Positions 696 to 21,057 of a stretch of 36,738 bases of DNA are shown one piece after another (position 1 is the first letter of the stretch; each line of letters starts with the position of its first letter). Location: the NCBI GenBank assembly GCA_944392675.1, contig CALXXK010000001.1, forward strand, positions 1 through 36,738, in the 5' to 3' direction. This DNA is from an uncultured Clostridia bacterium. GTDB lineage: Bacteria; Bacillota; Clostridia; TANB77; CAG-508. Below the pieces are notes generated by a model. That model was not told the origin of the DNA. It saw nothing but the letters and a program-made list of their open reading frames with translations, and did not search any database. The translations under genes were made by a program, and so were the position numbers.

Positions 696-908
696 CCTTA
701 CCACCTCTTTGTTTTTTATGGTCTTATTTTACTACTTGTCCTTTGTGGTTTTTGTCTTTTTTAGTAATCTATTTCTAAAAAGTTTTTTACATTTTTTTAT
801 ATTAATTTATATTTATTTTTTATTTTTCTTATATTACTTCATTTTGTAGTTTTTATTTTATTATAATTTGTTGAATTTTGTCAAGAGGAAAGAGGAGGGG
901 ACAGAGGA

Positions 909-1317
909 GGGGACGTTCCTTTAATCCCTAAAATTCGGGATAATGGGGACGGACCTTTGCAAAATTACCCTTTGGGGACTTATCCATAAAAGAATTTTAG
1001 ATTCTATAACATTTTTTACTATAAAAAACAAAGTATTATATATAAATTTTAATAATTATGAATACGAATGAAAGAATATTATAAATTCTTTAATTATCAA
1101 GTAGGAGAATCTCAAACTTGCTTTGAGAGGTGCCTGCTTGATAATTTTAGAATTTATTTGTTCTGTAATGTTAGCCGAGTAATTATTAAAATTTATATAT
1201 AATACTTTGTTTAAAATTTAAAGGATATTTATTAAAATTCCCTTTATGGATACGTCCCAAAAATGATAAAAGGTCCGTCCCCCTATCCCTAATTTTAGGG
1301 ATTAGAGGAACGTCCCC
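909..1317. repeat. Palindromic element A: 409-bp imperfect long hairpin with conserved ~50-nt terminal modules
   Basis: 909-958 is the near-exact reverse complement of 1269-1317. Further pairing: 975-999 with 1233-1258; a perfect 33 bp at 1026-1058 with 1180-1212; 1081-1089 with 1149-1157; 1092-1101 with 1137-1146. The apical hairpin is CTCAAA-cttgc-TTTGAG at 1111-1127. There is no ORF. Confidence 0.9.
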
Positions 1318-1321: not shown

Positions 1322-4300
1322 TTATTTAAGAACATATTTCTTTATTAATACTACACCTGCTGCAATTATTCCTAATATACTTAATCCAAGTATAACATAT
1401 CCTGTATAGTCTACTGATAAACCTGTTGCTGGAACTACATAGAATTCTTCTGCTTTATCATCATCATAGTCATGTGTTTCGTCATTTCCTGGTACATAGT
1501 TACCTGGAATTGTAATTAATGTAGATCCCCAAGTTTTACCTATTTGCATTACTTCTGCATGGTTTTCTACTCTATCACCTTCATTATTTGTCATGTCTCT
1601 AACACCTATCATATCAAAAGTTGCTATATTTTGATCTTCTAATGCACTTAATGCTGAGTCTTTTAATTCTTCGATTCCTACAACTTTATTTGTAAGTGTA
1701 AGCGTTTCTTGTAATTCTGGTGCTAATAATCCGTCTGTTATTAATTCTGCTTTTTCAGCCTCACTCTTTATATGCCAATTATTTTCGTCTATACCTAAGT
1801 CATTGTCTGTATAGTCTATAATTATTTCTGGTGTTAACCTTGCTACGTCATCTTTATTTTCATGTCCTTCTCCATATAAATAGAATTCCTTCGTCGAGTA
1901 ATCTACCTCAGATATATTTGTTACTTTAAATTCGTATATTACTGTTATTCTTACTGATTTTACTAATTCGTCATCTATTTCTATTTTTACTTCATCTTCA
2001 TTTTGTTCTGATTTTGGTATATAAACAATATATTTAGGATGATTTGTTATTGTTCCATTTTCATCTATATCTGCTTCTGATAAAGTCATTCCATTTGCAA
2101 GTTTTACTGTTATTTTCTTAATTCTCTTTTCAAGCATTAATCCTTGTCTTGATCTTTCGATGATACCAAAATCTACACTATTTATTATATTTCTGTATTC
2201 TGGTTTTTTAACTGCATATCCATTTTCTATTATGATATTTCCATTTGCGTCTTCCTCGTATTGATCCATATCTGGAGTATCTGGAGTATATTCTACATCT
2301 ACCATAAATTCTGGTGTATATGAATCCATTTTTGTTATTACTTTTTCTGAATCTGCAATTTCGTTACCATATGATTGATTTATTTGTTGTTTTTTGCCAT
2401 ATGTCATTGTTTCTGTTTCTTTATCCACATTTTGTCTCATTTCAAAATCATCAACTGCATCTGATACTCTTATTTCTGTATTTGAACTTTCATCCCATTC
2501 TACTCCTGGATACATTTGCTTAAATGGATCTTTGTACCATTCTGTTTCTCTTGAAGCTCCTTTATTTTCAAATGAGCTTTTATCAACTATTGTACTCTTG
2601 TAATCTTGAACTCTATATTTGTCATCTCCCCATTCGTATTGAACTATATAGTAATCAGGGACATATCCAACAAATGAATATTCTCCTTCTGATGATGTTG
2701 TAGTTACTGCATCTACCCATTGAGTTCCATTATACATTCTAGCAACAGTTCCATCTGTTTTTAATAGTGTTACTTTTACTCCTGCTATTCCTGGTTCATT
2801 GCTATCTAATCTTCCATTTCCTTGTCTTACTCTTCCTGTTTTTAATTCTTCAGTTTCTGTATCTTTATCTTCAAAGACTTTACCATACATTTCTCTTCTA
2901 TCTTGTAATACTAGTCTAAATCCTGGTGCTCTATCTGTATCGTCTTCATAAGTATCTGTATTTCCAGGTGTTGCATTTTCTGGTGCTGAATCTGTATCTA
3001 CACCTGCATATAGCTGACCATTACTATCAGTTGTAGTATATGATGCAACTTCTGCTACATTTTCTAAGTTTTCTCTATTATTTACTGCATTTTCTATAGC
3101 TTGTTTATTTAATCCAAATTGTATATATATTTCGGTCTGCATTTGTGGAGCTACCTCACTATTTGCTGTCACTATTACCTTTTTATATTCTGAATTATAT
3201 GATTGTTCTGCTGAGCATGTTAAGTTTCCTGTAATATGTCCACTTTCATCTACTCCTGTACCTGCTCCGATTAAATAATAATTAGTGTCAAAATAATCTA
3301 CTATTGTATTAATTTTTGTTGTAAGGTTTGTTGATTGATTTTTTAGTGTTATTTTGTATGTTACTCTTGCATTTAATTCTCCATCTTTATTTGCTTGATC
3401 TACTTTATAATAGAAATCCTCTTCATATACAGGTCTTGAATATGTCATATCTGAATATTTTTCTTTAAAGCTTACTCCAACTTTAAATTCATTATCATAT
3501 TCATCAGTACCTTTTATTGCTTCTTCTTCACTATCTATAAGACTTGATTTTTGTCCATATCTATATACATTGTCAAATCCATTTATCTCTACTATTGCAT
3601 TTTCTACGTCTTTTACCAATGCCATGTCTGGATGTTCTCTTTCAATAATTCCGAAATTTACATTTTCTATTTCATCATATCTTGGATTATATCCATCAGT
3701 TAAACTGTATACACCATTTGTTGACCCTACTACATGGTATTTATCTTGTGCATATATTTCATTTGGACTATAAATTATTTCACTCTTATGATCTCCCGTA
3801 TTGTATTCTACATCTGAAGAATTTGTTATTGTATTATATCTTTGATTTAAACTATCTCTTGATGATTTTATATCTTCTGCTTTTGAACCATCATCAAGTT
3901 CTGGATGTGGTGTAACTGAGTGATATTTCATTCCATTATATTCAAATTCTATTTCATATTCTTCTATATGTTGGGCTTCTATTTTTAAATCATCTCTTGT
4001 TCCCCAGAATTTATATTTGCCTTCTTCTAGTTTTGTACCTCTACTATCTGAACCTGAATATATTTCACATATAATTTGTCCTTTTCTTTTTAATGTGATT
4101 TTTACTCCATCTACACCTTCTCCTGGAGAATATAAGTCATCACCAACCCATTGTTTTCCTTCTCTTTCATCTACATAAACTACTCCTTCGATATCCACAA
4201 ATGTTCTTTCATTTTCTATAATTCTTTCTCCAGATGTTTGTAGTCCTCCTCCTGATACTTCAAATCCAGAACCTATTTCTTTTTCTGATACATCTTGATC

Positions 4301-6601
4301 TCCGATACGTACATTAAAGTATACATTTTCGCTTCCTACTTCGTATAAAGTATATGTTCCTGGTTCTGTAATACTAGGATCATCTAATGTCATCGTAATC
4401 GTACCATCTTTTAATGAGATTCCTTCTCCAACATATTGACTTTGTGACTTTTTATAATAATCATTATATTTTTTCCATTTTTCCCATTCTTTATGATCTT
4501 TATTATATTGTTCAGTATCATGTTTTCTTCTACTTCTTCGTTCTGTTGTATAATAAATATTTCCATCTTCATCTACATGTTTTACTCTAACTGTATAATA
4601 TTCTGTATAGTAATAATCATCATAATCTGGTTCTGGTTTATATTTAGTATACTCTTCATTGTCCGGATCCCAATTCTTAATTGCGAATTTCATTCCCTCT
4701 AATGGTACATTATCTGTATCAGCAATAACTTTTATAACTCCATCTCCTGGTGGCGTTGGTTCTTCTGGTTCGTCTGGTTTATCTTTCTTTTTATTTTCAA
4801 ATACTACTTCTACTGTTTTCTTATCTCCTGATGTCAATACCACTTTTTGTGGATTATTTGTTGATAATTCATAGTTTGTAGGTGCTTTTGTTTCTTTTAC
4901 ATAGTATGTTCCTGGTTCTAATCCTTTTATAGTTAATGTTCCTGTTGAATTTGTAGTTCCTGTTTCTACTACATCAGTACATGCTACATCTTTACAAATT
5001 ATGAATTCTGCTCCCTTTAATCCTACTGTTGTTCCTTCTGCATATTTTTTAATTATTAATTGTGTATCTTGTGATTCATTATATATTACTCTTGCATTTA
5101 ATTGCTCATTCCATTGTGCCCAATATGCATCTTGAAGTACTGTTGGCATATCTACAACTGTTTTTCCTGTTTTTCTTAACATTCTTCTATACATATTGTT
5201 CAATTTTTCCATAGCTTGACTTTTGCTATCCATTTCTAAAACACTATAGCCTTTTTCGTCTATTAAATATTGTAATACAAATGTAATTAGATTATATTTA
5301 TTTGTAAATTTCTCTGCATCAGAATTTGCTCCGTTTGTCATAATAGTATCATAATATCCACTATTATCTATATCTTTTATAATATTTTTCACATCTGTAC
5401 TATCAGGTCCATAATTTACACCTGCTAATACATACACCAGAGTACTTATATAATCTTTTAATTGTTTACTTCCTGTTAAATTTTCATAATATTTATTGTT
5501 ATTCGTGTATGTTATACTTTTTACAACATCATATCGGTATTTGTCACCTACTGTTACATTAGGAATTGTTCCTTGTATTTTATATCCATCTGGCGTTTCT
5601 TTTTCTATAATTTGGAATACATCACCATCTTTTAGTCCTGCTATTTCAACAGTACCATTTGCATTTGTTGTAAATACCTTAGCTGAACTTGCACTTTTTG
5701 TATATGTAACTGTACTACCACTTGATTTGATATAATATCCATTATTAGGTGAACCTACCTTTTTTAATACAAATTTTGCTCCTTTTAAAGGTTTTTGAGT
5801 ATCTGCGTCCATTTTTACTAATTTTATACTTTTTCTTTTTGTTTTATAACTAGTAAATACTATTCTATCTTGTCCTGCAGCAGATCTTAAAATTATAATA
5901 CGAACATCTTTGTCATCTTTTGCTGCTGATGCTGCTTTTGAATTACATGCATCCCAAAATGTTTTATTTTTCTCATAATATCCATCGTAATCATTTGCTG
6001 GATACCATATTTTGTATTCTCCATAATGGCTTGTTGAATAATGCCATAACCATCCTTTTGTATCATGATTCCAATAATACCATACAAGCATGTCTCTACC
6101 TTGTCCTGATTTTCCTCCTATTGAAAATTGAGTTACATAATTTTTAACAAAATATGCCATTGTATTAAATCTTTTCATTCCACTTGTATCTGATGATGGT
6201 ACATTAACTATTGTGTTTCTAAATGCTCCTATTTGTGCTGTTCCATCTGCATAAACATCTATTATATTTTTTATTTCAAATCTATCTTGACTTGCATTTG
6301 CGTGGCTATTAATACAGTTCCAATTATAATTTGGATATATAACATCACCTGTAAGTGAGTTACTAGAACCTGTTCCATATTTTATTAATGCATTTTGTAC
6401 ATTTATATTCATAAATTTTTCAGGATCATTTTTAGCCCATTCGTATAGCTCTGTTACTGTTTTGGGTAAAGTTTTATCTTTATTGGCCGCATTTATTTCA
6501 TCTTGTGTTGGTTGATATGCTGCTAAAGAAGGTTTATTGAAAACCACAAATAACATAAATACAAATATTAAACTAATTAGAATTTTTATTGATGTTTTCA
6601 T
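1322..6601 (-). CDS. Giant cell-wall-anchored adhesin (1759 aa). It has a signal peptide, a Cys-containing thioester-like N-domain, SpaA/Cna-B-type domains, an SdrD-B-like domain, DUF11-like modules and a VPATG sorting signal.
   Basis: N-terminal signal peptide (MKTSIKILISLIFVFMLFVVFNKPSLAA). Cna-B/SpaA signatures include KGAKFVLKK..TTNANGTVEIAGLKDGDVFQIIEKETPDGY and LKGAEFIICK..TNSTGTLTIKGLEPGTYYVKETKAPTNY. The SdrD-B-like stretch is IEGVVYVDEREG..GVDGVKITL. The C-terminus is VPATG plus a hydrophobic stretch plus KKYVLK (1325-1435). The ATG lies 1 nt after the stop of the upstream gene, with AAGGAGG inside that gene's end. It is a paralog of 11927-15931. Confidence 0.85.
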   Translation of the reverse strand: MKTSIKILISLIFVFMLFVVFNKPSLAAYQPTQDEINAANKDKTLPKTVTELYEWAKNDPEKFMNINVQNALIKYGTGSSNSLTGDVIYPNYNWNCINSHANASQDRFEIKNIIDVYADGTAQIGAFRNTIVNVPSSDTSGMKRFNTMAYFVKNYVTQFSIGGKSGQGRDMLVWYYWNHDTKGWLWHYSTSHYGEYKIWYPANDYDGYYEKNKTFWDACNSKAASAAKDDKDVRIIILRSAAGQDRIVFTSYKTKRKSIKLVKMDADTQKPLKGAKFVLKKVGSPNNGYYIKSSGSTVTYTKSASSAKVFTTNANGTVEIAGLKDGDVFQIIEKETPDGYKIQGTIPNVTVGDKYRYDVVKSITYTNNNKYYENLTGSKQLKDYISTLVYVLAGVNYGPDSTDVKNIIKDIDNSGYYDTIMTNGANSDAEKFTNKYNLITFVLQYLIDEKGYSVLEMDSKSQAMEKLNNMYRRMLRKTGKTVVDMPTVLQDAYWAQWNEQLNARVIYNESQDTQLIIKKYAEGTTVGLKGAEFIICKDVACTDVVETGTTNSTGTLTIKGLEPGTYYVKETKAPTNYELSTNNPQKVVLTSGDKKTVEVVFENKKKDKPDEPEEPTPPGDGVIKVIADTDNVPLEGMKFAIKNWDPDNEEYTKYKPEPDYDDYYYTEYYTVRVKHVDEDGNIYYTTERRSRRKHDTEQYNKDHKEWEKWKKYNDYYKKSQSQYVGEGISLKDGTITMTLDDPSITEPGTYTLYEVGSENVYFNVRIGDQDVSEKEIGSGFEVSGGGLQTSGERIIENERTFVDIEGVVYVDEREGKQWVGDDLYSPGEGVDGVKITLKRKGQIICEIYSGSDSRGTKLEEGKYKFWGTRDDLKIEAQHIEEYEIEFEYNGMKYHSVTPHPELDDGSKAEDIKSSRDSLNQRYNTITNSSDVEYNTGDHKSEIIYSPNEIYAQDKYHVVGSTNGVYSLTDGYNPRYDEIENVNFGIIEREHPDMALVKDVENAIVEINGFDNVYRYGQKSSLIDSEEEAIKGTDEYDNEFKVGVSFKEKYSDMTYSRPVYEEDFYYKVDQANKDGELNARVTYKITLKNQSTNLTTKINTIVDYFDTNYYLIGAGTGVDESGHITGNLTCSAEQSYNSEYKKVIVTANSEVAPQMQTEIYIQFGLNKQAIENAVNNRENLENVAEVASYTTTDSNGQLYAGVDTDSAPENATPGNTDTYEDDTDRAPGFRLVLQDRREMYGKVFEDKDTETEELKTGRVRQGNGRLDSNEPGIAGVKVTLLKTDGTVARMYNGTQWVDAVTTTSSEGEYSFVGYVPDYYIVQYEWGDDKYRVQDYKSTIVDKSSFENKGASRETEWYKDPFKQMYPGVEWDESSNTEIRVSDAVDDFEMRQNVDKETETMTYGKKQQINQSYGNEIADSEKVITKMDSYTPEFMVDVEYTPDTPDMDQYEEDANGNIIIENGYAVKKPEYRNIINSVDFGIIERSRQGLMLEKRIKKITVKLANGMTLSEADIDENGTITNHPKYIVYIPKSEQNEDEVKIEIDDELVKSVRITVIYEFKVTNISEVDYSTKEFYLYGEGHENKDDVARLTPEIIIDYTDNDLGIDENNWHIKSEAEKAELITDGLLAPELQETLTLTNKVVGIEELKDSALSALEDQNIATFDMIGVRDMTNNEGDRVENHAEVMQIGKTWGSTLITIPGNYVPGNDETHDYDDDKAEEFYVVPATGLSVDYTGYVILGLSILGIIAAGVVLIKKYVLK

Positions 6602-6602
6602 T

Positions 6603-9600
6603 TTAAACCTCCTTTCTTCTTTTGATGTAAATTATTCCTCCAACAATCATCAATATCACTATTAATGATAAGCTAATTGCTAATACTACTTTACCTGTAC
6701 TTATTGAAATTATTACTTCTGCTTTGCCCATGTCATCTTCTGTTTCTACATTGTTTCCATATGTTGAGTCTATATCGGCAATATTTAAGTCATTGCTTGC
6801 TTTTGCAATTTCAGCTTTATTTATACTATTCCCCAAATTATTTTCATTCATTGTTTTTGTTAATACTAATTTTATTGTCTGAGTTTCCCCAGGATTTATT
6901 GTTGTGTTTGTTAAGCTACTATTATGTAATTCCCCTTCTCTTGTTAAATACCAATCTGGATTTGATTTTTCATCAAATTGTAAATCATTTGGTATATAAT
7001 CTACTATTTCATTTACTTGTCCTGGAATTTCTCCTTCATTAGTTATTTTTAAATCATATTCTATTGTTACTACTGTTCCTGCCAATTCTTTTGCTTTTAA
7101 TTCCACTTTTGCTAATGTTGCATCATTATACTCTGTTACTGTTTTTGATTTACTATTTTGTACAGTTATTCTATTTATAGTTTTCTTTAATGATAAGTCA
7201 AAAATATTTTTCTCATAAAATCCTGCATCTATATTTCTAATTTCTAAATTACTTATTGTTATTTCATTTGTTATCGCTATTTCTTTATCTTGTCCATTTA
7301 TATTTACAACTTTAGATATAACATCAGAATTTGTTGATGCATCTGTATTTTGTACTTGATATTGTGTTACTGTATATTTATTTGTATCATACTCAAATCC
7401 TACCATATATGAATTTCCTGTTAAATTATCAAATTTATAGAATCCATTTTGATCTGTAGTAGTTTGTATTGTAGCTCCATTTTCATCTGTTGCTAATTGT
7501 CCTGTAGCTCCATCAAATAGCAATACTGTCATTCCACTCATTACTGATGAATCATCTCTTATACCATTCTTATTACTGTCTATCCATGCTATTCCACTTA
7601 GGGCTTTAAGTCTTTGACTTGGATTACTTGGATTTTCATTTATACCATCTTGCAATTTATATGTTATTACATTTGACTCTGTATAATAATCTCCACCCAT
7701 TGCTGAAATAACATTTTCAAATTGTTCTAAATCATATAAATTTTCTCCTACTACTGCATTTATTACTAAATCTATTTCTGAATATGCTCCTAATAAATAA
7801 TTAGCGCTTAAATATCCTTCTCCTGTATCACTATCTTTCTCATATTGAGCATCTGCTATTCTTTCTCCATCTTTCATTAAATAAGCTTCTGTTACATTTA
7901 ATATTGATGATACATTGTCTTCTATCAATAAATCTGCTTCTATATTAGATGTATTTCTTATATTAGCTACAAATTGAATTTCGTCACCTTCTTTAACAGA
8001 TTCTCCATCTATACTTGCTGTTTGTACAATTTCAAAATTTGCAATTCTATTAACGTCAGATTTTGATATTACATTTGAGTAATATTGATTTCCATTTATT
8101 GTAGCATTACATGAGAAATCATATGTTTTCTCTGTTTCACCATTGCCTATAGGTTCAACATATAAGTCTAAAACAAGTGTTAATGTCTCTTCAGGATCAA
8201 GTTTCTTTATATTAATTTTAATATTATTATCTGTAAATTCTTCATATGTGTAATTATCTCCATTTACTCTGTATTCATCTCTTAATGTTACTCCATCTGT
8301 TAATGATAAATTTAAAGTTATATTTTCTAATGTATTTTCAGAAATATTAGTAATATTATATGTAAATGAATTTTCAGAACCTGCAGAAAATATTACTTCT
8401 TCATTTTTTGAATATTTTGTTGTTAATTTTAGCTCTGCATCTTTTATTTTATTTTGCATAATATCTTTTGAAAGTTCAAAATCATCAGCTTTCATTTCCA
8501 ATTTTCCTATAGTTACTTCATTTTCATTTTTTGCTTTATTAATAGTAAATTCATATTCAAATTCTACAGTTTCACCATTTGTTAATACATCTTTTTTAAA
8601 TCCTTTTTCTGTTAAAGTTTCATCTTCTTCATAATTTGTAACTATTACTGGATTTCCTGTAACCGCATCTGGAACTTGCTCTTTTTTCATATTGAAAAAT
8701 GTAACATTATTATTTCCATCAGCATCTTGTTGTTTTCCTACTACAGAAAAATTAGTTAAATCCTTTCCTGTATTATTTGTTAATGTTATTATATGTTTTA
8801 CTGTTTGTCCTTCAAAAATTTCTTCTCCATCTTGTAATTCTTTTCCTCCAGAAATTGTTGTTATTTTTAAATCTATTCCTTCTACATTTTCTTCAATACT
8901 TAATGGTGATATTTGACTATTTTCTCCATCTCCTATTAATTTTAATGTTGTATAGTCCTCAAATTCTTGATTATTATATTCATATTGTAATCTTGTTATT
9001 TGGAAATATGTTTCATCATTTTGAACATTTTCTGGTATTTCAATTTTATAACTAACATTTATTACTTCTGATGGTCTTAATGTTGGTATCGATATTTTAA
9101 ACATTTTTACTTGTGACAAATCTTCTACATTTTCATACCATTGTTCACTATCAATTGATATGTTTTCTGTTGCATATAATACTTTTGCATCTGGATAATT
9201 TGTTTGTATTTGTCCTAATAATTTTGTTTGAATTGTTGATTTAAATTCATCACTTTCGTTTGTGGTATCTATTTTTCCTACTATAATTACATTATTTATA
9301 TCTGTTTCATAATTATTTATTACTGCTGTAGTAACATTTGCTTCTTTTCTTTGGGCATTTGTATCTAATTTACCTGTAACTGCCTTTTGTGATAATGTTT
9401 CTATTTGCTCGCTTTGTTCATTATATCCATTCATCATTCCATACATTAAAACACCATATTTAGAATTCATTTTTATATCTGCATTTACTGTATTTTCTTC
9501 ATTGTTTCTATTTTCATTTGTATATTTTAAAGTTATAACAGAATTTTTTGTAGGTGTTAATTTATTAAGTGTGATATTTGCGCTTATGATTATTTGTATT

Positions 9601-11447
9601 CCTTGATTTACACTATTCTTAAATTCTTTTTGCTCTCCTCTTAGTTGCATTTCTATCTTTTTCTCTGCTTTATTGTATTGAACTCTCTCTACCTCCATCT
9701 CGTCAGCATACATTTTTTGTATAGATTTTACTTCTATATTTTCTACTTCATCTGGTAGTTTTATTTCTACATACGGATTTTTATATAAATCATATTTATT
9801 ACTATCTGACTTTAATGTAGCTATAATTTGAATATTTTCGTTTTTTTGTAATGTAGAAAAATTAGTATTATTTACTTCAAGTTTTGCTTCTGAAACTGTA
9901 TCTAATAAATTCATATATGAACTTATAGATAGATAATCTTTTAATTTTAGTAGTGTTTCACTTTGCAATTTTGATATGTTCTTAAGGACTTCTTTACCAT
10001 ATCCTGTATCTGATTTTATTGCTTTTTCTAATATAATTTGTATGTTTCCTTGAGTTACTGGCTTACTTAAAATAATTTTTATGTTTTCTATATTATTTAT
10101 TTGTACATTTATATTTCCTGCTTCATCTTCTTGAGAATTTCTATCAATAGTTGATATTGTATTGTTTCCGTAGTCTATTATTGATATATTTGATTCTTGT
10201 CCTAAAATTTCTAATATTTGATTTTTATTAAATTTAATATTTTTATAATATGTACTATTATTTGTAGATAGTTCTTTATTATCATTTGTTATAAATGAAT
10301 TTTTTCCTGTTTCTACTTCTATATTTGAAATATTATCTATGTCTGATATTTCTATGTCTAATTTTTCTTGATATGTTGTTTCATTTCCTACATTTGCATA
10401 TAGATAACCTTTATAATTACTTTCTGTCATTTGTTTTTGTAGTGTAATTATTTCTCCTAATTCTTTTAATTCTACTTCTTTAGTATCTTGTTTTTGTATT
10501 AATTCTTTTGTATATACTCCTAATTCTAATTTTGTATCTAAATTTACTTTATTATTTTCTATACTATTATCATAATTATAAATTATCTTGTATTCGTCTT
10601 TTCCCGTTCCCCAAATAATATTATTTCCTTCTAATTCTATATTTTTTGTTATAATTATTTCTCCATTATTTTCATCATATGAGTAACTATTTTCATTTAG
10701 TTTCTTGCCATTATTTAATACTGCTACTATTTTCATTCCATTGTCTTTATCAGGTACTTTTATAGTTATTTTTTCATTTTTTATTGGTAATATATTATTT
10801 ACTACTTCTACATCTATTCTTTGTTGTAATAATGTTTTTCCATTATCCATTACAAAGTATTTTTCTATATCTTGAGAAAAATTAGTCTCCACATTTTCAG
10901 ACCATATTCCAGCTACTTTTATTTCGCCTTTTACATGTTTTACATCTTGCTCGTCATATTGATATTCTCCTTCTAGTGTTATTGATGTTTGTCTATCAAA
11001 ATAATCTGATGCAATTTTGTCATTTTTCTCAAATTTTATTGGAATATCTAGTTCTACTTGATTTCCATATATTACTTGATTTAAATATATTTTATTATCT
11101 TCAACAGATTTCACATATTTATTGTTTATTTTGTCTTTTGCAATAGTAAAATTCGGATTATTTATTACTATTACTGCATTATTTAGTGAACCTGTATCTC
11201 TTATATTTAAATTAATATACAGATTATCTCCATTTAAAATTGACATAGTTTTGCTATGTTTATTATTACCATTTTCTTTGAAATAGGCATTAAATTCAAT
11301 ATTAGTATCACTTATTCTATATTCTTGATTTTCTAAATTTTCGTATATAGCAATTGATAGCCCTCTACCAACTTCAAAAAAGTTAATGCTTATCATTGCA
11401 AACATTAAACCAATACTAATTATTGTCCTTAATATCCTTCGTCTCAT
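6603..11447 (-). CDS. Giant cell-wall-anchored repeat protein (1614 aa). It has an N-terminal TM/signal, many beta-sandwich (DUF11/CARDB-like) modules, a C-terminal SdrD-B-like domain and an SISTG sorting signal.
   Basis: RBS GGGAGG lies 8 nt upstream of the ATG. DUF11-like signatures include GQTVKHIITLTNNTGKDLTNFSVVG and VKEGDEIQFVANIRNTSNIEADLLIEDNV. The SdrD-B-like stretch is LSGIAWIDSNKNGIRDD..GMTVLLFD..TDQNGFYKFDNLTGNSYMVGFEY. The tail is SISTG plus a hydrophobic stretch plus KRRKEV (6606-6707). It is co-linear and homologous with 15953-20839. Confidence 0.85.
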   Translation of the reverse strand: MRRRILRTIISIGLMFAMISINFFEVGRGLSIAIYENLENQEYRISDTNIEFNAYFKENGNNKHSKTMSILNGDNLYINLNIRDTGSLNNAVIVINNPNFTIAKDKINNKYVKSVEDNKIYLNQVIYGNQVELDIPIKFEKNDKIASDYFDRQTSITLEGEYQYDEQDVKHVKGEIKVAGIWSENVETNFSQDIEKYFVMDNGKTLLQQRIDVEVVNNILPIKNEKITIKVPDKDNGMKIVAVLNNGKKLNENSYSYDENNGEIIITKNIELEGNNIIWGTGKDEYKIIYNYDNSIENNKVNLDTKLELGVYTKELIQKQDTKEVELKELGEIITLQKQMTESNYKGYLYANVGNETTYQEKLDIEISDIDNISNIEVETGKNSFITNDNKELSTNNSTYYKNIKFNKNQILEILGQESNISIIDYGNNTISTIDRNSQEDEAGNINVQINNIENIKIILSKPVTQGNIQIILEKAIKSDTGYGKEVLKNISKLQSETLLKLKDYLSISSYMNLLDTVSEAKLEVNNTNFSTLQKNENIQIIATLKSDSNKYDLYKNPYVEIKLPDEVENIEVKSIQKMYADEMEVERVQYNKAEKKIEMQLRGEQKEFKNSVNQGIQIIISANITLNKLTPTKNSVITLKYTNENRNNEENTVNADIKMNSKYGVLMYGMMNGYNEQSEQIETLSQKAVTGKLDTNAQRKEANVTTAVINNYETDINNVIIVGKIDTTNESDEFKSTIQTKLLGQIQTNYPDAKVLYATENISIDSEQWYENVEDLSQVKMFKISIPTLRPSEVINVSYKIEIPENVQNDETYFQITRLQYEYNNQEFEDYTTLKLIGDGENSQISPLSIEENVEGIDLKITTISGGKELQDGEEIFEGQTVKHIITLTNNTGKDLTNFSVVGKQQDADGNNNVTFFNMKKEQVPDAVTGNPVIVTNYEEDETLTEKGFKKDVLTNGETVEFEYEFTINKAKNENEVTIGKLEMKADDFELSKDIMQNKIKDAELKLTTKYSKNEEVIFSAGSENSFTYNITNISENTLENITLNLSLTDGVTLRDEYRVNGDNYTYEEFTDNNIKINIKKLDPEETLTLVLDLYVEPIGNGETEKTYDFSCNATINGNQYYSNVISKSDVNRIANFEIVQTASIDGESVKEGDEIQFVANIRNTSNIEADLLIEDNVSSILNVTEAYLMKDGERIADAQYEKDSDTGEGYLSANYLLGAYSEIDLVINAVVGENLYDLEQFENVISAMGGDYYTESNVITYKLQDGINENPSNPSQRLKALSGIAWIDSNKNGIRDDSSVMSGMTVLLFDGATGQLATDENGATIQTTTDQNGFYKFDNLTGNSYMVGFEYDTNKYTVTQYQVQNTDASTNSDVISKVVNINGQDKEIAITNEITISNLEIRNIDAGFYEKNIFDLSLKKTINRITVQNSKSKTVTEYNDATLAKVELKAKELAGTVVTIEYDLKITNEGEIPGQVNEIVDYIPNDLQFDEKSNPDWYLTREGELHNSSLTNTTINPGETQTIKLVLTKTMNENNLGNSINKAEIAKASNDLNIADIDSTYGNNVETEDDMGKAEVIISISTGKVVLAISLSLIVILMIVGGIIYIKRRKEV

Positions 11448-11822
11448 ATGCTTTTCCTCCCTTAATTTACTATATTTATAGTAGAATATTTATACTTATT
11501 TATCAATGGTATTTTTTTGCAAGAATTTATGTTTATCTACGGATAGGGATTTTTAGCTATTTTTTACGTTTTTTTAATAATTTTGTTACACTATTGTTAC
11601 ATTTTTTATTTAACCTTCTATTATTTATTTTTTTATTGTATACATTCTTTGTATTCCTTAAATCCGTTAGCTTTAAAAGCTTTTTTTCAGTTCATAACTT
11701 AGACTAACCCCTGTTATCTGAAAATATATAATTAGATTGTAATATAAGAAACAATAGCGACATGATTTAAATGCTCTATTATTTTAGTTAATTAACATGT
11801 CGCATCTTTGTTCGCGCGCCAA

Positions 11823-11850
11823 ATTTTACGTAATTAAAATCTGTGTACAA
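11823..11850 (-). promoter_or_regulatory. Candidate sigma-A-type promoter for the 11447-1322 bicistron
   Basis: The minus strand reads TTGTAC-16 nt-TAAAAT (-35 at 11845-11850, -10 at 11823-11828). It lies just downstream of the 11891-11919 terminator. If real, the leader is about 370 nt. AT-rich DNA produces such matches by chance. Confidence 0.3.
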
Positions 11851-11890
11851 CTATTTTAATTATAGGATATATAATTCCATATAATTAAAT

Positions 11891-11919
11891 AAAACTGTTG
11901 ACTTTTAATCAACAGTTTT
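11891..11919 (-). terminator. Rho-independent terminator candidate after CDS 11927-15931
   Basis: AAAACTGTTGA-cttttaa-TCAACAGTTTT is an 11-bp perfect stem starting 8 nt past the stop codon. It is followed on the minus strand by a T/A-rich tail (ATTTAATTAT). Confidence 0.55.
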
Positions 11920-11926
11920 ATTTATG

Positions 11927-14900
11927 TTATTTATTTAAGACTTTTCTCTTTATGATAATTATTCCTACAACTCCGACTGCTAATGCTCCTACTACTATAC
12001 CAATAATCATTCCGAAATTTCTATTTTGTCCTGTTGGTGGTGTTACAATTACTGGTGGTGATTGGTCGTCATCTATTTCATCTTCACCTTCTGGAACATA
12101 GTTACCTGGTGTTGATGGTATGTCTCTTCCTCCTGTTTTGTTTACTTCTACTAATTCAGTATAGTTCGTTAAATAAATTTCGTCTGCTACTGATAGTATT
12201 TTTGAAACATTTAATGTTACATTTGCATTTTCTGTAGGTTTTAAGTTTTGCTCTGCTAATTTTTCAGTATATAGTATTATGCTGCCTTTTACACTATCTG
12301 TATTATATACTTCTTCTGAAACTAGTTTTAATTGTTGTATTTCTTCTACTGTTTTTTGTTCCCATCCTTGTTCTTCATTATTTTCAGTATCAAAAGCCCA
12401 ACCTTGGTCTAAGTAATCTATAATTCCTGTTGGTGATATTGTTACTAATTTGTTTGGATCTTTATCTGTTCCGTATTTATAGTAATCTTCACTTATATAA
12501 TCTAATTCACTGTTATTTTTAGCTGTTATCTTATATTCTACTTCTAGTAATGATCCTTGCATTAATTCTTTGTCAATTTCTACTCTTACAAATCCTTTGC
12601 TTGTATCTTTAGGTGGTTGTGCTGTAACATGATTAGATTCTTTTATTATATTTCCATTGTCATCAAATTCTGCGTCTTCAATTACTTGTCCATTTGCTAG
12701 AGTAACTTTTAGTTTGCTTACTCTCTTAACTAGTTCTATTTCTTGTCTTGGTCTTTCTACAATACCGAAATCTACATTTTTAATTTCATATACAAGCTCA
12801 TCTCCAGTTGCATCTGTTACTGCCATATCTGTATTTTCTACTGTTATTCCCATTGTTGGTGTAGTAGAATCCATTAATACTTTTGTTGTTTGTGATGAAT
12901 TTGTTATATTTTTTAATTCTTCGTCTATTTCTTGTCTTTGACTGTAATCGTCTACAGCGTCTGTCCATCTAGTGTCTACATCTTTTTTGTACCATTCTTT
13001 GTCTTGTGTATTTTGAGAATATCTGTCTTGGTTATATACTGTTCCTTTATAGTTTTGTACTGTATATGTTTCGTCTCCCCATGTGTATGTTAAAGTATAA
13101 TCTCCTGGAATGAATCCTGCAACAAGGAAGTCTCCGTTTTCATCAGTATTTGATTCGTAAACTTTTCCTGTTCCTGTATTTTCTGTTAATGTGATTTTTA
13201 CTCCTGGTATTCCAAGTTCACCATCTTCATATGCTCCGCTTCCTAATCTTTCTTCTCCTGTTTTTAATTCAGGTGTTGTTCCGTCAAGGAATACTTTACC
13301 CATTAATTTTCTTCCATCTGCTACTTCTAATCTTAATGCTGGAGCTCTATCTGTATCATCTTCAAATGTTGTTGTATCTCCTGGAACTGCATTTCCTGGG
13401 TTAGAATCAACATCTACACCTGCATATACATTTCCTTCTTTATCAAATGTTGAATAAGAATTAATTTCTGCTACATTTTCTAATAGATTATTTTGTCCTG
13501 CACTTGCTCCTTGTTCATCTATTATTCTTGCTACAGCTTCCCTATTTAATTGGAATTGTACATATATTTGTGTTTGTTCTTGTGATGCTATTTTACTATC
13601 TGATAATTCTATAATAGCTTTATTATATTCTGAGCTATATCCTTCATCTATAGTATAATTTAAACTTCCTAAAACATTTCCGCTTTGGTCTATATCTGTT
13701 CCTGCAGCTACTATAGTATAATTTTTATCATAGTAATCAACTACTGAATTTACTTGTGATACAAGGTCTGTAGCTTGATTCTTTAATGTGATTTTATATG
13801 TTATTTTTACTTTTAATTCTCTGTCTGAATTATTGTCTGTATATTCATAGTCTGATTGATATATTGCTCTTGTATATGTCATATTAGAATATTTTTCTCC
13901 AAATTTAACACCTACATTAAATAAATCTTCTCCTCCATTTTGTGCTTCTCTTGTTTTTTGTTCATACATATATGTATGTCCATATCCATTAATTGATAGA
14001 TTTACATTATTTAAATCTTTTACTAATGCTAAATCTGGTTGTTCTCTTTCATATAGTCCTAAATTAATATTCTTTATTTCTTCTTCTCCTACAACATAAT
14101 GATCTATGATGTTATATCCTGTTTGTTCTGTTTCTGCTGTAATTGGATAATTTCCTTTATTTGCTAATGTCAATACCTCGGCATTTTCATCTTCATATGT
14201 TACATTATTTAATTTAGTTTTATATTCTCCAGAATTTTTAGTATATGATAAATCATGTACTTTATTTCCATTTTCATCTTTTGTTATACCTGTATCTGTT
14301 CCTGTACCTTCTATACTGCTAAATCCGTTATTAAATAATGCTCTTGTTTCACTGCTTTCTGCTGCTTTTGAACCATTATCTTTATCTATATATGGTACAA
14401 CATTTGTAAATGTTAATCCATCATATTCAAATTCTATATAGTAATTTGGCAATTCTGCTACTAATACATCCACAAATTGATATGCTCCTTTATCAGCTGT
14501 TGTTGTTTCCATAATAGTATTTCCTGATTTATCTTTTAATCTAACGGTTATTCCATTTAATAATTTATCTCCATAATCAAATTCACCATCATTATATAAA
14601 TCATTTCTTATTGCTTGTTTTTCTGAAATTTTATCTAACCATACATATCCTGAAAGTTTTATGTATTTTTGGATATTTGGTACTTTTAATTCTGATGTTT
14701 TGTCTATTACAACTGAACCTGCTATTCCTTCTGATATTATCTCATATCCATAATTAGGATTTTTAGTTTCATAAGCTACATATGTACCAACTAATAAGTT
14801 TTTAACTGTAAATTCACCATTTTGATCTGTTATAAATTCTGTTGCTTCATCTCTACTAGATACATATGATATAGTTCCATTAGAATTTTGTTTTACATAT

Positions 14901-15931
14901 TCTCCTGTTTCTTTGTTTTGTAAAATAAATCCTACACCCGATAATTTAATTTCAGAATTTTCTACTATTTTTATTACTTTTAAATTTCCTAATAGTGGTA
15001 TATTATAATCAAAATTTTCTTTAATTGTATCATTTTTTGTATATGAATCTCTAGCAATTAAATTTTGTGTACCATTTTGATTTTCTAAAAACCATATTTT
15101 TGCACATTTTACTTCATATTTACAACTTCCTGACATTCCTGTTATTTCTGTTACACCTTTATCTGCTGGTATTAATGCATAAAATGATTTTCCTGATTTG
15201 ATTTCACTAACTTTTGTGTCTACTAATTCTTTTCCTTCGTATCTATTATATATTACTCCACTGATTGCTTTTCCATTTTGATCATATACAGATATATCAC
15301 TTAATTTTCCTGAGAATGTCCATTTAAATGGTCCTACTTTTATATATGATTTTCCATTTTTAGTTACTGTACTAGCTTTTATTTTATCTTTATTTGTGTT
15401 GTCTTCTAAACTTTGATTTTCTTTAATATTTGTAGCATAGTTTTTTGCTTCTGTTATTAGATAGTCATATTGTGATTCTCCAGCATTTCCTACCATAAAT
15501 CCATTAGGTATATTATATTTTTGTCCAACTTTTCTTCCCCATTCTGGAAGATAACTCCATAGTGCATTTGCTACTGGTCCTTCACTTTTGTCTATTCCTT
15601 GTGATTCTGTTCCATTATCTTTTGATAATATATATGCAAATACTCCATTTTCCCATGCTGTTATTTTTTTGTTATCAGCTTGGTTTATTGATTGTAGTCC
15701 TTCTATTGTTACTATTGAATTTACTTTATAATTTACTTTCCAAGCTGGTAAACTCTGACCATGCTGTACACAAAATAGATTAGGATCTGCCACATAATCA
15801 AAATATGACTTAGATAATGTATCTCCAATTTTGTAATTTGTATATGATGCTGCTTTTGATATATTAGCTATAGATAGCATAGCTGTAATTATAATTAGTA
15901 TTAATATAATTTTATTTTTTATCTTTTTCAT
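11927..15931 (-). CDS. Giant cell-wall-anchored adhesin (1334 aa). It has a signal peptide, a Cys-containing thioester-like N-domain, SpaA/Cna-B and SdrD-B-like domains and a TPPTG sorting signal.
   Basis: Signal peptide MKKIKNKIILILIIITAMLSIANISKAAS. RBS AAGGAGGT lies 8 nt upstream. The Cys motif is LFCVQHGQSLP. The Cna-B signature is LSGVGFILQNKETGEY..TDQNGEFTVKNLLVGTYVAYETKNPNYGY. The SdrD-B-like stretch is LSGYVWLDK..GITVRLKDKSGN..TTADKGAYQF. The tail is TPPTG plus a hydrophobic stretch plus KRKVLNK (11930-12043). There are long co-linear matches to 1322-6601, for example EREQPDLALVKD / EREHPDMALVKD and TYKITLKNQATDL / TYKITLKNQSTNL. Confidence 0.85.
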   Translation of the reverse strand: MKKIKNKIILILIIITAMLSIANISKAASYTNYKIGDTLSKSYFDYVADPNLFCVQHGQSLPAWKVNYKVNSIVTIEGLQSINQADNKKITAWENGVFAYILSKDNGTESQGIDKSEGPVANALWSYLPEWGRKVGQKYNIPNGFMVGNAGESQYDYLITEAKNYATNIKENQSLEDNTNKDKIKASTVTKNGKSYIKVGPFKWTFSGKLSDISVYDQNGKAISGVIYNRYEGKELVDTKVSEIKSGKSFYALIPADKGVTEITGMSGSCKYEVKCAKIWFLENQNGTQNLIARDSYTKNDTIKENFDYNIPLLGNLKVIKIVENSEIKLSGVGFILQNKETGEYVKQNSNGTISYVSSRDEATEFITDQNGEFTVKNLLVGTYVAYETKNPNYGYEIISEGIAGSVVIDKTSELKVPNIQKYIKLSGYVWLDKISEKQAIRNDLYNDGEFDYGDKLLNGITVRLKDKSGNTIMETTTADKGAYQFVDVLVAELPNYYIEFEYDGLTFTNVVPYIDKDNGSKAAESSETRALFNNGFSSIEGTGTDTGITKDENGNKVHDLSYTKNSGEYKTKLNNVTYEDENAEVLTLANKGNYPITAETEQTGYNIIDHYVVGEEEIKNINLGLYEREQPDLALVKDLNNVNLSINGYGHTYMYEQKTREAQNGGEDLFNVGVKFGEKYSNMTYTRAIYQSDYEYTDNNSDRELKVKITYKITLKNQATDLVSQVNSVVDYYDKNYTIVAAGTDIDQSGNVLGSLNYTIDEGYSSEYNKAIIELSDSKIASQEQTQIYVQFQLNREAVARIIDEQGASAGQNNLLENVAEINSYSTFDKEGNVYAGVDVDSNPGNAVPGDTTTFEDDTDRAPALRLEVADGRKLMGKVFLDGTTPELKTGEERLGSGAYEDGELGIPGVKITLTENTGTGKVYESNTDENGDFLVAGFIPGDYTLTYTWGDETYTVQNYKGTVYNQDRYSQNTQDKEWYKKDVDTRWTDAVDDYSQRQEIDEELKNITNSSQTTKVLMDSTTPTMGITVENTDMAVTDATGDELVYEIKNVDFGIVERPRQEIELVKRVSKLKVTLANGQVIEDAEFDDNGNIIKESNHVTAQPPKDTSKGFVRVEIDKELMQGSLLEVEYKITAKNNSELDYISEDYYKYGTDKDPNKLVTISPTGIIDYLDQGWAFDTENNEEQGWEQKTVEEIQQLKLVSEEVYNTDSVKGSIILYTEKLAEQNLKPTENANVTLNVSKILSVADEIYLTNYTELVEVNKTGGRDIPSTPGNYVPEGEDEIDDDQSPPVIVTPPTGQNRNFGMIIGIVVGALAVGVVGIIIIKRKVLNK

Positions 15932-15952
15932 TAAAATTTACCTCCTTTCTTC

Positions 15953-18900
15953 CTATATTTCATCTATTTTTATATTATTCTTTTTTCTTATAACTACAAG
16001 TGCTACTATTGATAACATTACAACTATTATTATAGCAATTCCAACATATACAACTCCACCTGTTTTTATACTTAGAATAACATCTGCATAGTCCATATCA
16101 TTTTCGCCTTGAACTTTATTTCCTGGTGTTGAGTTTATATCACCAACGCCTAATTCATTATATGCTTCTGCTATTTCTGCTGTATTATTTACACGTCCTG
16201 TATTATTTTCTGTCATTGTTTTTGTTAGTGTTAATGTCAATGTTTTTGTTTCACCTGCTGCTATTTTATCATTTGCTATACTTGAATTATATAATACTCC
16301 GTCTTGTTGATACCAATCTTTGTTCATTTCTGAACTAAATTGAAGATCATTTGGTAAGTAGTCTGCTATTTTTCTAGCATATCCTTCTACTTCTCCTTCA
16401 TTTTTTACATTTATTTTATATTCTATTATTACTGTTGTTCCTTTTAATTGTTTTGCATCTATTTCTACTTTTGCTAATTTTTCATTATTAAATTCTTTAA
16501 CTGTTGTTCCTGCTGAATTTTGTAATATAATTTTGTTCACATATTTTTCTAATTTTAAATCAAATGTTTTTAATTCAATTAGTCCTATATCAATATCTGA
16601 AATATTATTATTATTCATTGTTATTATATCTGTTCCTGTTACTTGTTTAGTATTTCCTTCTATATTTAATTCTGTTGTCATTGCATCTGAATTTTTAGTT
16701 TCATCTGCTCCTTCTACTTTATATTTAGTAACTGCATATTGTGATGTATTATATTCAAATATTACAATATATTGTCCATTTGCTATATTGTCTAAAACAT
16801 ACATACCTTGTGCATTTGTTGTGGTTTCAAGTGTTTTTCCTGATTTGTCTTTTACTAAATTATTTGTTTGAGTATTTAATAATTTTACTTTTACATTATC
16901 TAATGTTTTTTCATTATCATCTTTTATTCCATTTGCATTTTCATCAAACCAAGCTAATCCACTAATCATTCTTGATCCTTGTGCGATGTCATTATTTTCT
17001 GTATTGTTATCATTATTTTCGTCGTTTCCTGTATTATTATTGCTGTCTCCTGATTGTGTTTCTTCTATTATATGATTTATAGTATCTGTTCCTGCCATTG
17101 TTTCTCCAGCAATTTCTACATATGCTTTATTTGAAATTGCTTCTGCTTCTTCTCTATCATCTGCTTCGTTAACAATTGTTTGTATTTTTACTTCACAACT
17201 ACCATTTGCCATTATGCTTAATCTTATTTCTACTTGATTTGTTTCTATTCCTTCAACAGGTTGTCCATCTACTGTTACATTAGTTATTGTTAATTGTTCT
17301 GGAATAGTATCTTTTAGAACTACATTTTCTGCTCTACTTTCTGAACTATTATTTACTACTATTGTATATTCTATTATGTCTCCTGCTTTTACATATGAAC
17401 TTTGTGTATTTGATGTCATTGACATTGTAATATTATAGTTACTTATATTATCTGTCCAAACATTAGATTTATATTCTTTAGAAGCTTCGTCTTTAGCTAT
17501 TACATATAATTTAGCTTCATTATTTTTTGTTGTGCTTATATCCATACTATATGATAATACTTTTACTTCTCCTGGTTCTAATGAACCTATATTTACTTCT
17601 TGAGCATATTGCATTTCTTCTGATTGCATATTTTCATTAACATTTTCTTTTTGTATTTCATCTTCTGGATTAAATACTCCTTCAGTTCCATCTGCAATTA
17701 TTTCATCATCTGACACTTCTTGACTTCCCATTCCTGTATGTAATGTTAATTTTTCTACTTGTAAGTTATCTGATATATTTGTTTCTACTTTTACATTTTC
17801 TTGTTTAGCGTCTGAAATATTTTCTATAATTGCATAATATTGAACTGCTCCATTTCCATATAAATTTATACTTCTATCTGTAACTCTTTTTACACTTACT
17901 CTTAGATTTCCTTTTTCTGTTGTTGTCTGTACTTCATTAGAATCGTTTATTGCTTCTCCATATTTTGTTTCTATTGAATTTGTAAGTGTTGTATTTTCAG
18001 CTGTATCTGAATTTACTCTTACTTCATATTCTACAATTGCTTTTTCACCAACCGCTATTTTTTCTATTGTTTTTGCGAATTTATCTGTTTCTATTTCTTT
18101 GTAATATGATGAACCTGTATATTCATAATTTGGTTCTGGTTCTACTAATGTTGTTCCTTCAGGTATTTGTCCTGTTACTACTGCATTTTGTACTTCTTCT
18201 GAACCTGTATTAGCAATTTCTATATGATATTTTATAACTTCTCCATTTTTTACTTTTGTATCTGAAGTTACATTTTCATTTCCTATTGTTGCACTTAATG
18301 TTGTTTCTATTTTTGGTCCTACTCCTGTATCCATTTCGATATCTGTTGATTCGATTGTATTTGATACATTTGTTGCACTATTAGTGTAACTTACGTCATA
18401 TCCTTCTGTTGCTTTTTGGTTATATTCAAGGTTTTCTGGAACTTTTATACTATAAGTACCTACTATACTTTGTTGTGGTTCTAGATTATTATTATATTCT
18501 ATTAAGTATTTTTTACTATTTTGAGTTGCATCTTGCGTCCATCCATTTTCAGTGTTTTGTAAGTCATTTGTTGCATTTTCATTATCTGAATAATAAATTG
18601 TTGCATTTTCCATGTTTATTCTAGTTGCTAGTTTTGCTCCTAAGTTGTTTGATTCACTATCAGTAGGAAATGTTCCTAATACTTTCATATTATTTATTGG
18701 TTCTGGATTATTATTAATTATCTCTAATTCTACTTCTAATTGTTTTCCATCTTCACCTTTTCCCATTGATATTGTTTGTGTTTTTTCTTGCCCTACTGTT
18801 TCTATTCCTAAGTCTTTAATGCTATTTATTGCTGTTACATCTGTAGGTGCTACAATTTGTATATCTTTAGAAGCTGTACCTACTTCTTCTCTATTTATAT

Positions 18901-20839: not shown

Positions 20840-21057
20840 TTTTATTCCTCCTTTAAAAAACATTTAAAATTAATATTTCCTTTATATAATATAAATTTTT
20901 TATAAAAAAATCAATTATTAATATTAATGTATTTTTTTATCATTTTTTGTTGTTTTACGGCTTTACACATTGCATATATAGATGATTTATATTACATTTT
21001 TATAACATTTTTGTAATAATTTGTAATATTCCTTATTTGCATAAAACACCTATCTAT

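Follow-up and report, generated by a model that had tools for sequence, protein, structure and literature searches.

A Modular Family of Nested Palindromic Repeats with a Conserved Core in Uncultured Gut Clostridia, Probably Akin to REPIN/BIME-Type Composites

We analyzed a long imperfect palindrome, designated element A, in a 36,738 nt stretch of DNA from an uncultured Clostridia bacterium (GenBank assembly GCA_944392675.1, contig CALXXK010000001.1, positions 1–36,738; hereafter, the window). Element A belongs to a family of nested palindromic repeats, not described before, that occupies intergenic regions of uncultured gut Clostridia; this copy has decayed, and the repeat it represents is modular and dispersed, with interiors that recombine and can flip. 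It is probably best regarded as a non-coding, non-autonomous, nested palindromic repeat, with composites of the REPIN/BIME type (BIME, bacterial interspersed mosaic element; REP, repetitive extragenic palindrome) as its closest known analog. A preliminary description of the window had suggested that element A could act as a giant terminator, 3′ stabilizer or insulator, a role that does not define a sequence belonging to a dispersed repeat family. Full-text searches of the literature for the motifs, for RAYT or REPIN sequences in Clostridia and for invertons with non-coding RNA retrieved no description of this family.

Element A Belongs to a Dispersed Family of Palindromic Repeats

Element A has a sibling copy in the window, as the preliminary description had proposed: element B (30,833–31,189, plus strand) shares its termini of approximately 50 nt (AGGGGACGTTCCTTyAATCCCkAAAATTmGGGA...GGGACGGACCTT) and contains a homologous core (30,945–31,082), with different intermediate arms, and it sits between divergent genes. 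The terminal motif occurs four times in the window versus none expected, and the hexamer GGGACG occurs nine times versus 0.42 expected, with all occurrences confined to the intergenic elements A and B. In a genome collection, the matches listed for the 20 nt terminal motif GGGGACGTTCCTnnAATCCC comprised more than 110 loci (designated here with an L followed by a number), all of them from human-gut metagenome-assembled genomes (MAGs) of “Clostridium sp.” or Clostridia, and single MAGs supplied at least 11–16 of the loci listed. The terminal motif was absent from viral contigs; two pattern scans of such contigs gave only three chance matches in an unrelated phage of higher GC content, or none. 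The plasmid and phage collections contained no match to element A, element B or a copy of the L131 type.

The motif appears in two forms. The solo form, common among the loci, is a hairpin with the motif in its loop (e.g., GGGATTT-GGGGACGTTCC-TTAAATCCC), whereas in the window-type form two modules of around 50 nt face each other. We found 25 complete inverted pairs (24 separate elements) of 48–499 bp and with a self-complementarity of 0.62–0.98, which fall into size classes of 48 bp (L019, L031, and L034), about 110, 145, 205, 313–355, and 409–499 bp; the longer palindromes contain extra GGGGACG modules (GGGGACGCGTCC, GGGACGGGCTATTTTGGCA) nested within the outer pair. Full-length relatives of element A are present elsewhere in other genomes, with 82% (L017) and 89% (L071) identity. 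TA or A...T is found on the two sides of many copies, with the arrangement TA-GGGG...CCCC-TA in element B, L018, L037, L041, L059, and L105; element A has GA...TT in these positions.

The minimal 48-bp palindrome of L031 (2925–2972) lies between two convergent open reading frames (ORFs; 2582–2947, plus strand, and 2957–4681, minus strand) and furnishes both of their stop codons. In L093, the orthologous site has retained the left module alone, followed by a different cargo. As in L093, the GGGGACG termini of L105 (2455–2953) surround a different interior without any match to the core; these termini therefore carry more than one kind of cargo.

Related Modules Frame a Y1 Transposase Gene

A search for genes framed by inverted units, considering ORFs between inverted units located 0.6–4.5 kb apart, retrieved only housekeeping genes with the exception of one gene for a Y1 (HUH) transposase, in L063 (273–1055). 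Its 261 aa product contains a Y1_Tnp domain (Pfam, E = 4.6e-10), with the motifs NHAH and YIHNNP, and its best NCBIfam match was REP_Tyr_transpos (“REP-associated tyrosine transposase”; E = 2e-18), below the equivalog cut-off. No helix-turn-helix domain was detected by Pfam at E ≤ 0.01. The gene is flanked by the inverted hairpins GGGATTT-GGGGACGTTC-TTTAAAATCCC. A database search retrieved 555 homologs of the protein at E ≤ 1e-10, one of which is called RayT by JGI; the Y1 proteins have 255–265 aa.

We examined the genomic context of seven of these homologs. Four of them (P0006, P0012, P0032, and P0055) share a conserved neighborhood, with a ferredoxin or an LPG-synthase gene upstream and a PFOR gene downstream, and each is framed by inverted hairpins with GGGACG in the loop or at the end. 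The same framing was seen for P0102 in a different neighborhood, and no flanking hairpins were found near the gene in P0013 and P0050. Together with L063, inverted flanking units accompany the Y1 gene of related genomes in L176, L182, L188, and L190, where it is located between the ferredoxin/LPG-synthase and PFOR genes, and in L185, with a different neighborhood. In its two-motif architecture, the flank in L190, GGGGACGTCCCTTAAAATCCC-TGTTTTA-GGGATTAAGGGACACCCC, matches the termini of elements A and B. The presence of inverted GGGGACG modules flanking a single-copy, syntenic Y1 gene in related genomes leads us to consider the outer arms of the family as REP/REPIN-like.

The position of the RAYT-like gene is constant in L176, L179, L182, L188, and L190, after a gene for a 56 aa ferredoxin or an LPG-synthase and before a gene for the TPP domain of PFOR, although the proteins are only 43–60% identical to the query from L063. 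This constancy of position in spite of sequence divergence suggests a long vertical inheritance.

Interiors Are Exchanged at Fixed Sites

Strains of the species of the window were retrieved by means of the CotF-like protein encoded next to element B. The site of element B was occupied in all of them, with the same flanks and termini and with two kinds of interior: B-type in L166 and L171, and A-type, with a deletion of approximately 150 bp between two AAATTC repeats, in L165 and L167–L170. Three of the contigs end within the element. Likewise, a single orthologous site contains an A-type element in L017 and a B-type element in L041, and other sites are occupied, depending on the species, by either a window-type palindrome or a solo GGGGACG-loop hairpin (L019 vs. 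L057 and L003; L037 vs. L119 and L115). The alternation of palindromes and solo hairpins at orthologous sites indicates that the family is a long-term resident of particular intergenic slots. Additionally, the core of L158 is cleanly inverted with respect to those of L122, L138, L148, and L150, with identical flanks.

The flanks of L131-type copies (L114, L116/L131, L146, L149, L162–L164, and L125) are recombined between loci; for instance, L146 matches L114 on the left side and L131 on the right. Such combinations could stem either from genuine rearrangement between copies of the repeat or from chimeric joins made at the repeats during metagenome assembly.

Architecture of Element A

An inverted-repeat search delimited element A to positions 908–1318, with the terminal A/T pair counted in, as a long imperfect palindrome corresponding to the 409-bp hairpin previously placed at 909–1317. 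All of the pairing blocks of the preliminary description were recovered with a repeat finder, which confirms the rod-like hairpin, as follows: arms 908–947/1279–1318 (40 nt, 90% paired), 945–958/1269–1282 (14 of 14 paired), 971–998/1235–1262 (82%), 1026–1058/1180–1212 (33 of 33), and 1081–1116/1122–1157 (81%), the latter containing the apical TCTCAAA-CTTGC-TTTGAGA at 1110–1128. Folding of each strand reproduced a rod with a symmetric 22x22 bubble (1059–1080 opposite 1158–1179), unpaired in both predictions, again as initially described. The minus-strand RNA, in the sense of the adhesin transcript, had a predicted energy of −177.8 kcal/mol versus −76.6 ± 6.2 for shuffled sequences (z = −16.4), and the plus-strand DNA of −114.2 kcal/mol versus −35.5 ± 4.0 (z = −19.6); no shuffled sequence was equally stable for either strand.

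The palindrome is organized in layers. The left terminal module (908–958, approximately 50 nt), which pairs with 1269–1318 and is also found at the ends of element B and at dozens of loci, contains a first motif, GGGGACGTTCC (909–919), a small local hairpin, TCCC-TAAAATTC-GGGA (925–940), and a second motif, GGGGACGGACC (945–955). Its counterpart, the right terminal module (1269–1318), is the same sequence as 908–958 in inverted copy, with CGTCCCC motifs at 1276–1282 and 1311–1317 and the local hairpin TCCC-TAATTTTA-GGGA at 1286–1301. Inward of these, the left second module (971–999) pairs with the right one (1233–1262, GGATACGTCCC) and, as seen from its alignment to L017 and L071, represents a degenerate version of the hairpin module ACCATTTT-GGGGACGCGTCC-AAAAAGGGAAT: the sequence GGGGACTTATCC at 974–985 is a mutated form of the palindromic GGGGACGCGTCC, which is intact in these two relatives. 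Next come the left (1026–1058) and right (1180–1212) inner arms, which form a perfect 33-bp inverted repeat, and these enclose the conserved asymmetric core (1059–1179), whose plus strand in the window folds better. The core consists of the left bubble strand (1059–1080; motif GAATnnGAnTGnAnnAATnTTAnAAATTCTT at 1060–1090), the helices 1081–1116/1122–1157 with the apical hairpin, the motif GGTGCC (1129–1134), and the right bubble strand (1158–1179), which ends in GCCGAG. Element A is also the more decayed of the two copies, as the preliminary description had indicated: its self-complementarity is 0.77 versus 0.86 for element B, and its second module is mutated in comparison with L017 and L071.

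The left junction of element A is spanned by a tandem duplication of the 12 nt sequence AGAGGAGGGGAC (891–914, plus strand), whose second copy provides the first GGGGAC of the element and whose first copy yields GGGGACAG (897–904), fitting the published motif GGGGWSAS (PMC3733652). The duplication could have been left by cleavage and rejoining, or else by slippage; no counterpart of it was found at the right end. None of the ORFs inside element A is conserved; in the place of its 44-codon ORF, most copies have ATG-TGA.

Proposed Maintenance of the Repeats

In the REPIN/BIME-like reading, the GGGGACG modules would be the recognition substrates of the Y1 enzyme of related genomes, which would cut and rejoin them in trans as single-stranded hairpins, leading to the spread and maintenance of the family. 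Recombination between the arms, by flip-flop with copy correction, would keep each copy self-complementary, and interiors would be swapped by recombination between copies through their common termini or by re-insertion into the centers of resident palindromes. An unbiased count over whole hairpins found 18 G.T and 22 A.C pairs in the outer arms, without strand bias, which fits a maintenance of the arms at the DNA level. As for the core, our best guess is that it could act as a strand-specific structure, of single-stranded DNA or RNA, for the propagation or processing of the element.

Several observations weigh against this reading. The 5′ GT[AG]G hallmark of REP sequences is absent from the foot of the hairpins, and the protein motifs NHAH (HuH) and YIHNNP (Y) cannot be assigned cleanly to any single published subclass; because of these discrepancies, we consider the arms REP/REPIN-like in mechanism and outside of the named REP families. 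We found no Y1 transposase gene from the organism of the window in the 36.7 kb and the few strain contigs. Near-identical cores occur on wholly different arms, which arm recombination alone does not explain. Only one core inversion is clean; the remaining candidates for inversion have chimeric flanks or lie at contig ends, and could reflect rearrangement or artifacts of assembly. Joining of flanks identified no empty sites, as the orthologous sites hold either a member of the family or, in the case of L050, a terminator, and the sites examined demonstrated no target-site duplication.

The Apical Core Is Shared by Hairpins with Unrelated Arms

Elements A and B have in common an asymmetric module of approximately 165 nt that comprises both bubble strands, the helices above them and GGTGCC. 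A scan of metagenome contigs with the pattern of the left bubble identified this core at 51 loci, nearly all from the human gut, in every one of which it occupies the apex of a longer hairpin with arms that vary by subfamily. One subfamily has GGGGACG termini (the window, L017, L041, L059, L088, and L022), another has arms ending in GGTTACAATTCACAGyC (L131, L048, and ERZ1643246 groups), and the L122 group has short A/T-flanked arms resembling bidirectional terminators. Cores that are 96–98% identical are carried on mutually unalignable arms, each pair of which is nearly perfectly self-complementary (e.g., 60 of 60 positions in L048). Cores of the L122/L133 type (e.g., L133, 2768–2944) contain the pentamer GAATG in direct orientation in both bubble strands (GAATGAAATGACGAATGTGAATGG ... 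GGAATGGAATA). Given this recurrence, the so-called bubble may not be an open loop but a non-canonical helix rich in purines, or an array of protein-binding sites.

In an alignment of 28 core sequences, 97.4% of the cells were paired and 14 of the 30 pairs showed compensatory changes; none of 500 shuffled alignments reached the observed level, and slid registers were 40–53% paired. The consensus fold was much more stable for the GAATG...GGTGCC strand, which is the plus strand of the window, than for the other strand (−25.5 vs. −1.8 kcal/mol), there were 14 columns with G.U versus four with A.C, and a covariance model scored 110–158 bits in sense and 25–51 bits in antisense. The G.U excess was first derived from a structure selected by RNAalifold; the unbiased count abolished the excess in the arms, whereas that of the core persisted. 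Since counts are unbiased in the arms and biased in the core, the arms behave as DNA palindromes and the core seems to be constrained on one strand. This constraint is suggestive rather than proven, because few independent events underlie the G.U excess and self-correcting palindromes also produce “compensatory” changes.

Tentatively, these cores could represent a new class of strand-specific structured module, of RNA or single-stranded DNA, which colonizes the apices of existing hairpins such as terminators and REP-like palindromes, building “onion” palindromes layer by layer, and which flips. Spread across uncultured gut Clostridia, the module would be either a mobile element that targets hairpin loops and lacks any protein gene, or a regulatory cassette that is portable and invertible.

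It is unlikely, in our opinion, that the core alone is the real unit, that is, a structured non-coding RNA of a new kind, or an RNA switch with a regulatory role, for which the plus strand is transcribed, with the arms as an extended closing helix. The strong covariation, the G.U excess and the strand preference of folding energies and of the covariance model are what such an RNA would show, and the purine-rich sequences of the internal loops are kept across subfamilies with different stems. Nevertheless, Rfam 15 gave no match at gathering score in the window, with only chance-level matches around element A, and none at E ≤ 1 for six other core-bearing loci; additionally, no conserved promoter was seen in or beside the core, and the core flips relative to its flanks. 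In one-directional contexts the structured strand is antisense to the neighboring genes at about 12 sites versus five, a difference that is not significant, and a search for genes recurrently located beside the core turned up only orthologous neighbors. Arm recombination in palindromic DNA generates compensatory changes without selection on RNA, and the wholesale replacement of arms around cores with 96–98% identity indicates mobility rather than slow RNA evolution.

Other candidate identities of the core were rejected. Positions −12 and −10 are not conserved, which eliminated a sigma-54 promoter, suggested by the conserved GGTGCC/TGGCAC, and a sigma-70 promoter. The two internal loops recall the bridge RNA of IS110 elements, but they are conserved and not programmable; similarly, a rod with a bubble is reminiscent of 6S RNA, but its loops are conserved, and in both cases there is no adjacent recombinase and the element is multi-copy.

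Genomic Surroundings and Possible Effects on Termination

Element A is located between two genes of the minus strand. As previously described, position 1317 is 4 nt from the stop codon of the ORF 1322–6601, for which a domain search indicated a 1759 aa surface protein of the SpaA/SdrD type, and an ORF matching SpoIIE_N starts on the same strand at position 695, 213 nt past the other end of the element (approximately 210 bp in the preliminary description). The remainder of the window is core chromosome, including mreBCD, minC, PBP2, radC, pcrA, and prfB, and no transposase or recombinase was found among the genes of its 36.7 kb. A promoter-like site, TTGACA-18-TAAAAT, matches 11 of the 12 consensus positions at 884–855 (minus strand), 24 nt from the left end of element A and around 160 nt upstream of the start of the SpoIIE_N ORF, and is probably the spoIIE promoter. 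The site that carries elements in L017 and L041 is occupied, in the more distant L050, by a terminator hairpin of the ordinary kind that directly precedes a TTGACA promoter; from this, and from the vicinity of element A to a promoter-like site, it appears that the family tends to fill the slot between a stop codon and a promoter.

This position could favor the view that element A is a dedicated giant terminator, 3′ stabilizer or insulator separating the adhesin operon from spoIIE, which we nonetheless consider decidedly unlikely. The element is wedged between the adhesin stop codon and the promoter-like site, the minus-strand RNA folds at −177.8 kcal/mol, the family takes the place of an ordinary terminator hairpin at another site (L050 vs. 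L017 and L041), and at least one gene reads into 30 of the 34 copies scored. Moreover, effects on termination and on the stability of mRNA are known for both REP/BIME and Correia elements (PMC3733652, PMC6006769). In an intrinsic terminator, however, a G+C-rich stem is directly followed by a U-tract on the transcribed strand, and the sequence after the hairpin on the adhesin (minus) strand is CGUCCCCUCCUCUGUCCCC (CCUCCUCUGUCCCC), devoid of a U-tract; a terminator scan of element A detected a single, weak terminator-like site, internal to the element (1287–1265). Copies of the family are also found between convergent genes (L031), between divergent genes (element B) and at unrelated loci elsewhere (L017, L071, and L165), the asymmetric core and the GGGGACG modules are superfluous for such a role, and the interior at one site is swapped or half-deleted between strains. 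It is possible, on the other hand, that a terminator or stabilizer effect on the adhesin mRNA exists as a by-product and not as the purpose of the element. The adhesin transcript, when reading through, would form an imperfect duplex of approximately 190 bp, which could block 3′ exonucleases or attract RNase III; because this duplex is long but lacks a U-tract, termination, stabilization and RNase III processing are candidates for by-products only.

The adhesin gene is the nearest of four successive giant surface-protein genes (1322–20,863), with products of 1334–1759 aa and SpaA, SdrD_B, and DUF11 domains, which have internal repeats in common (e.g., 2874–3067 vs. 13,290–13,483, 73%). An unrelated 111-bp palindrome, with 44 nt arms that are 89% complementary and a 23 nt center, lies between the minC-like and PBP2-like genes (22,822–22,932).

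Inversion or Transposition by Other Enzymes

The presence of an asymmetric segment between inverted repeats, the clean flip of L158 in otherwise near-identical loci, the contigs that break within elements, and the proximity of element A to large adhesin genes, which are a typical inverton neighborhood (PMC11892184), are features expected for a phase-variable switch in which a recombinase acting on the inverted arms controls neighboring surface-protein or sporulation genes. This is, however, very unlikely: the core has no conserved promoter, the window encodes no invertase, the entire element is palindromic and not merely flanked by short repeats, and element A is known from a single assembly. 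Additionally, flipping of hairpin centers through arm recombination or template switching is expected without a dedicated enzyme. Finally, an ordinary miniature inverted-repeat transposable element (MITE) derived from an insertion sequence (e.g., IS630/Tc1-mariner-like, with TA target duplication) and moved by a DDE transposase would account for the long terminal inverted repeats and the TA or A...T flanks of many copies, but is highly improbable, since TA flanks are weak evidence in AT-rich genomes and element A has GA...TT, no autonomous element with these termini appeared among 193 loci, no gene other than that of a Y1 transposase was seen between framing modules, and REP-like solo hairpins with the motif in the loop are common.

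Significance

REPIN-RAYT systems have been studied mainly in Proteobacteria, and the large proteins of RAYT group 1, similar to subclass 2.1, have been reported to occur without REP structures. This AT-rich clade of human-gut Clostridia combines GGGGACG hairpin repeats, a syntenic single-copy Y1 gene framed by these repeats, and large nested composites with a conserved, covarying cargo, and offers a tractable system for examining how Y1 enzymes maintain repeat populations outside of Proteobacteria. It also raises the questions of how symmetry is preserved in long palindromes whose arms are being replaced, and of whether the cargo is functional in itself. At a practical level, metagenome assemblies break at the elements, which also favor chimeric joins and inversions at the local scale. 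As they directly adjoin the promoters or stop codons of spoIIE, large adhesin genes and the like, they may cause strain-specific changes in expression.

Comparison with Known Systems

The family resembles the REP, BIME and REPIN sequences of Escherichia coli and Pseudomonas in that short palindromic units are present in high copy in intergenic regions, often just past stop codons, and in that pairs of inverted units make larger hairpins. As in BIMEs, where conserved central motifs lie between two inverted REPs, the arms enclose a conserved center, and, as with the RAYT (TnpA_REP) genes, a single-copy, vertically inherited Y1 HUH gene with inverted flanking units is found, here in related genomes. 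RAYT “REPtrons” are recognized by their single copy, their synteny and the inverted units at their flanks, and the canonical definition of REP includes a 5′ GT[AG]G at the hairpin foot (PMC6006769). This tetranucleotide is missing in our family, which has instead GGGGACG(N3-4)C in the loop, in solo forms, or at the terminus, in window-type forms. Other differences are the host, Clostridia and not Proteobacteria, the size of the composites (reaching 300–500 bp, with several nested layers), and the central cargo, a covarying asymmetric module of 165 nt that also occurs on unrelated arms.

A second point of comparison is provided by TIRtrons, in which RAYT-like genes (TIRYT) are flanked by inverted repeats with a GGGGWSAS motif (Di Nocera et al., 2013, PMC3733652). 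TIRYT were equated with subclass 2.1 of TnpA_Y1, for which no REP-like structures were found near the genes (Quentin et al., 2018, PMC6006769). Our family shares with TIRtrons the inverted repeats that are not classical REPs flanking a RAYT-like gene, a G-rich motif, the organization of some repeats as moderately abundant families of dimers, and long proteins (about 240–260 aa) with a C-terminal extension, which in TIRYT is helix-turn-helix-like. Conversely, the last two positions of the motif found here, GGGGACGT, depart from GGGGWSAS, which is fitted only by the variants GGGGACAG (897–904) and GGGACACTCC. The protein motifs YIHNNP and NHAH are closer to those of subclasses 2.4 and 2.6, leaving the signatures of subclass 2.1 unmatched, and, unlike in this subclass, clear hairpins flank the gene.

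Correia (CREE/NEMIS), ERIC, RUP, and BOX are structured, MITE-like repeats that are co-transcribed with neighboring genes and, like the family described here, are intergenic, palindromic and multi-copy, and form long RNA hairpins upon read-through; some of them contain conserved internal sites for protein binding or processing. They are not known to be related in sequence to our family, which differs in being nested and modular, with no TA duplication demonstrated and no DDE partner.

Invertons, such as fimS, those of cwpV and flgB in C. difficile and the polysaccharide promoters of Bacteroides, also present an asymmetric segment between inverted repeats and both orientations at one locus. Here, unlike in invertons, neither a promoter nor a recombinase was identified, most of the element consists of the repeats themselves, and one and the same core is found at many loci in many species. 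Element A is, in sum, most probably a REP/REPIN-BIME-like element in an unexpected host group, carrying a conserved cargo.

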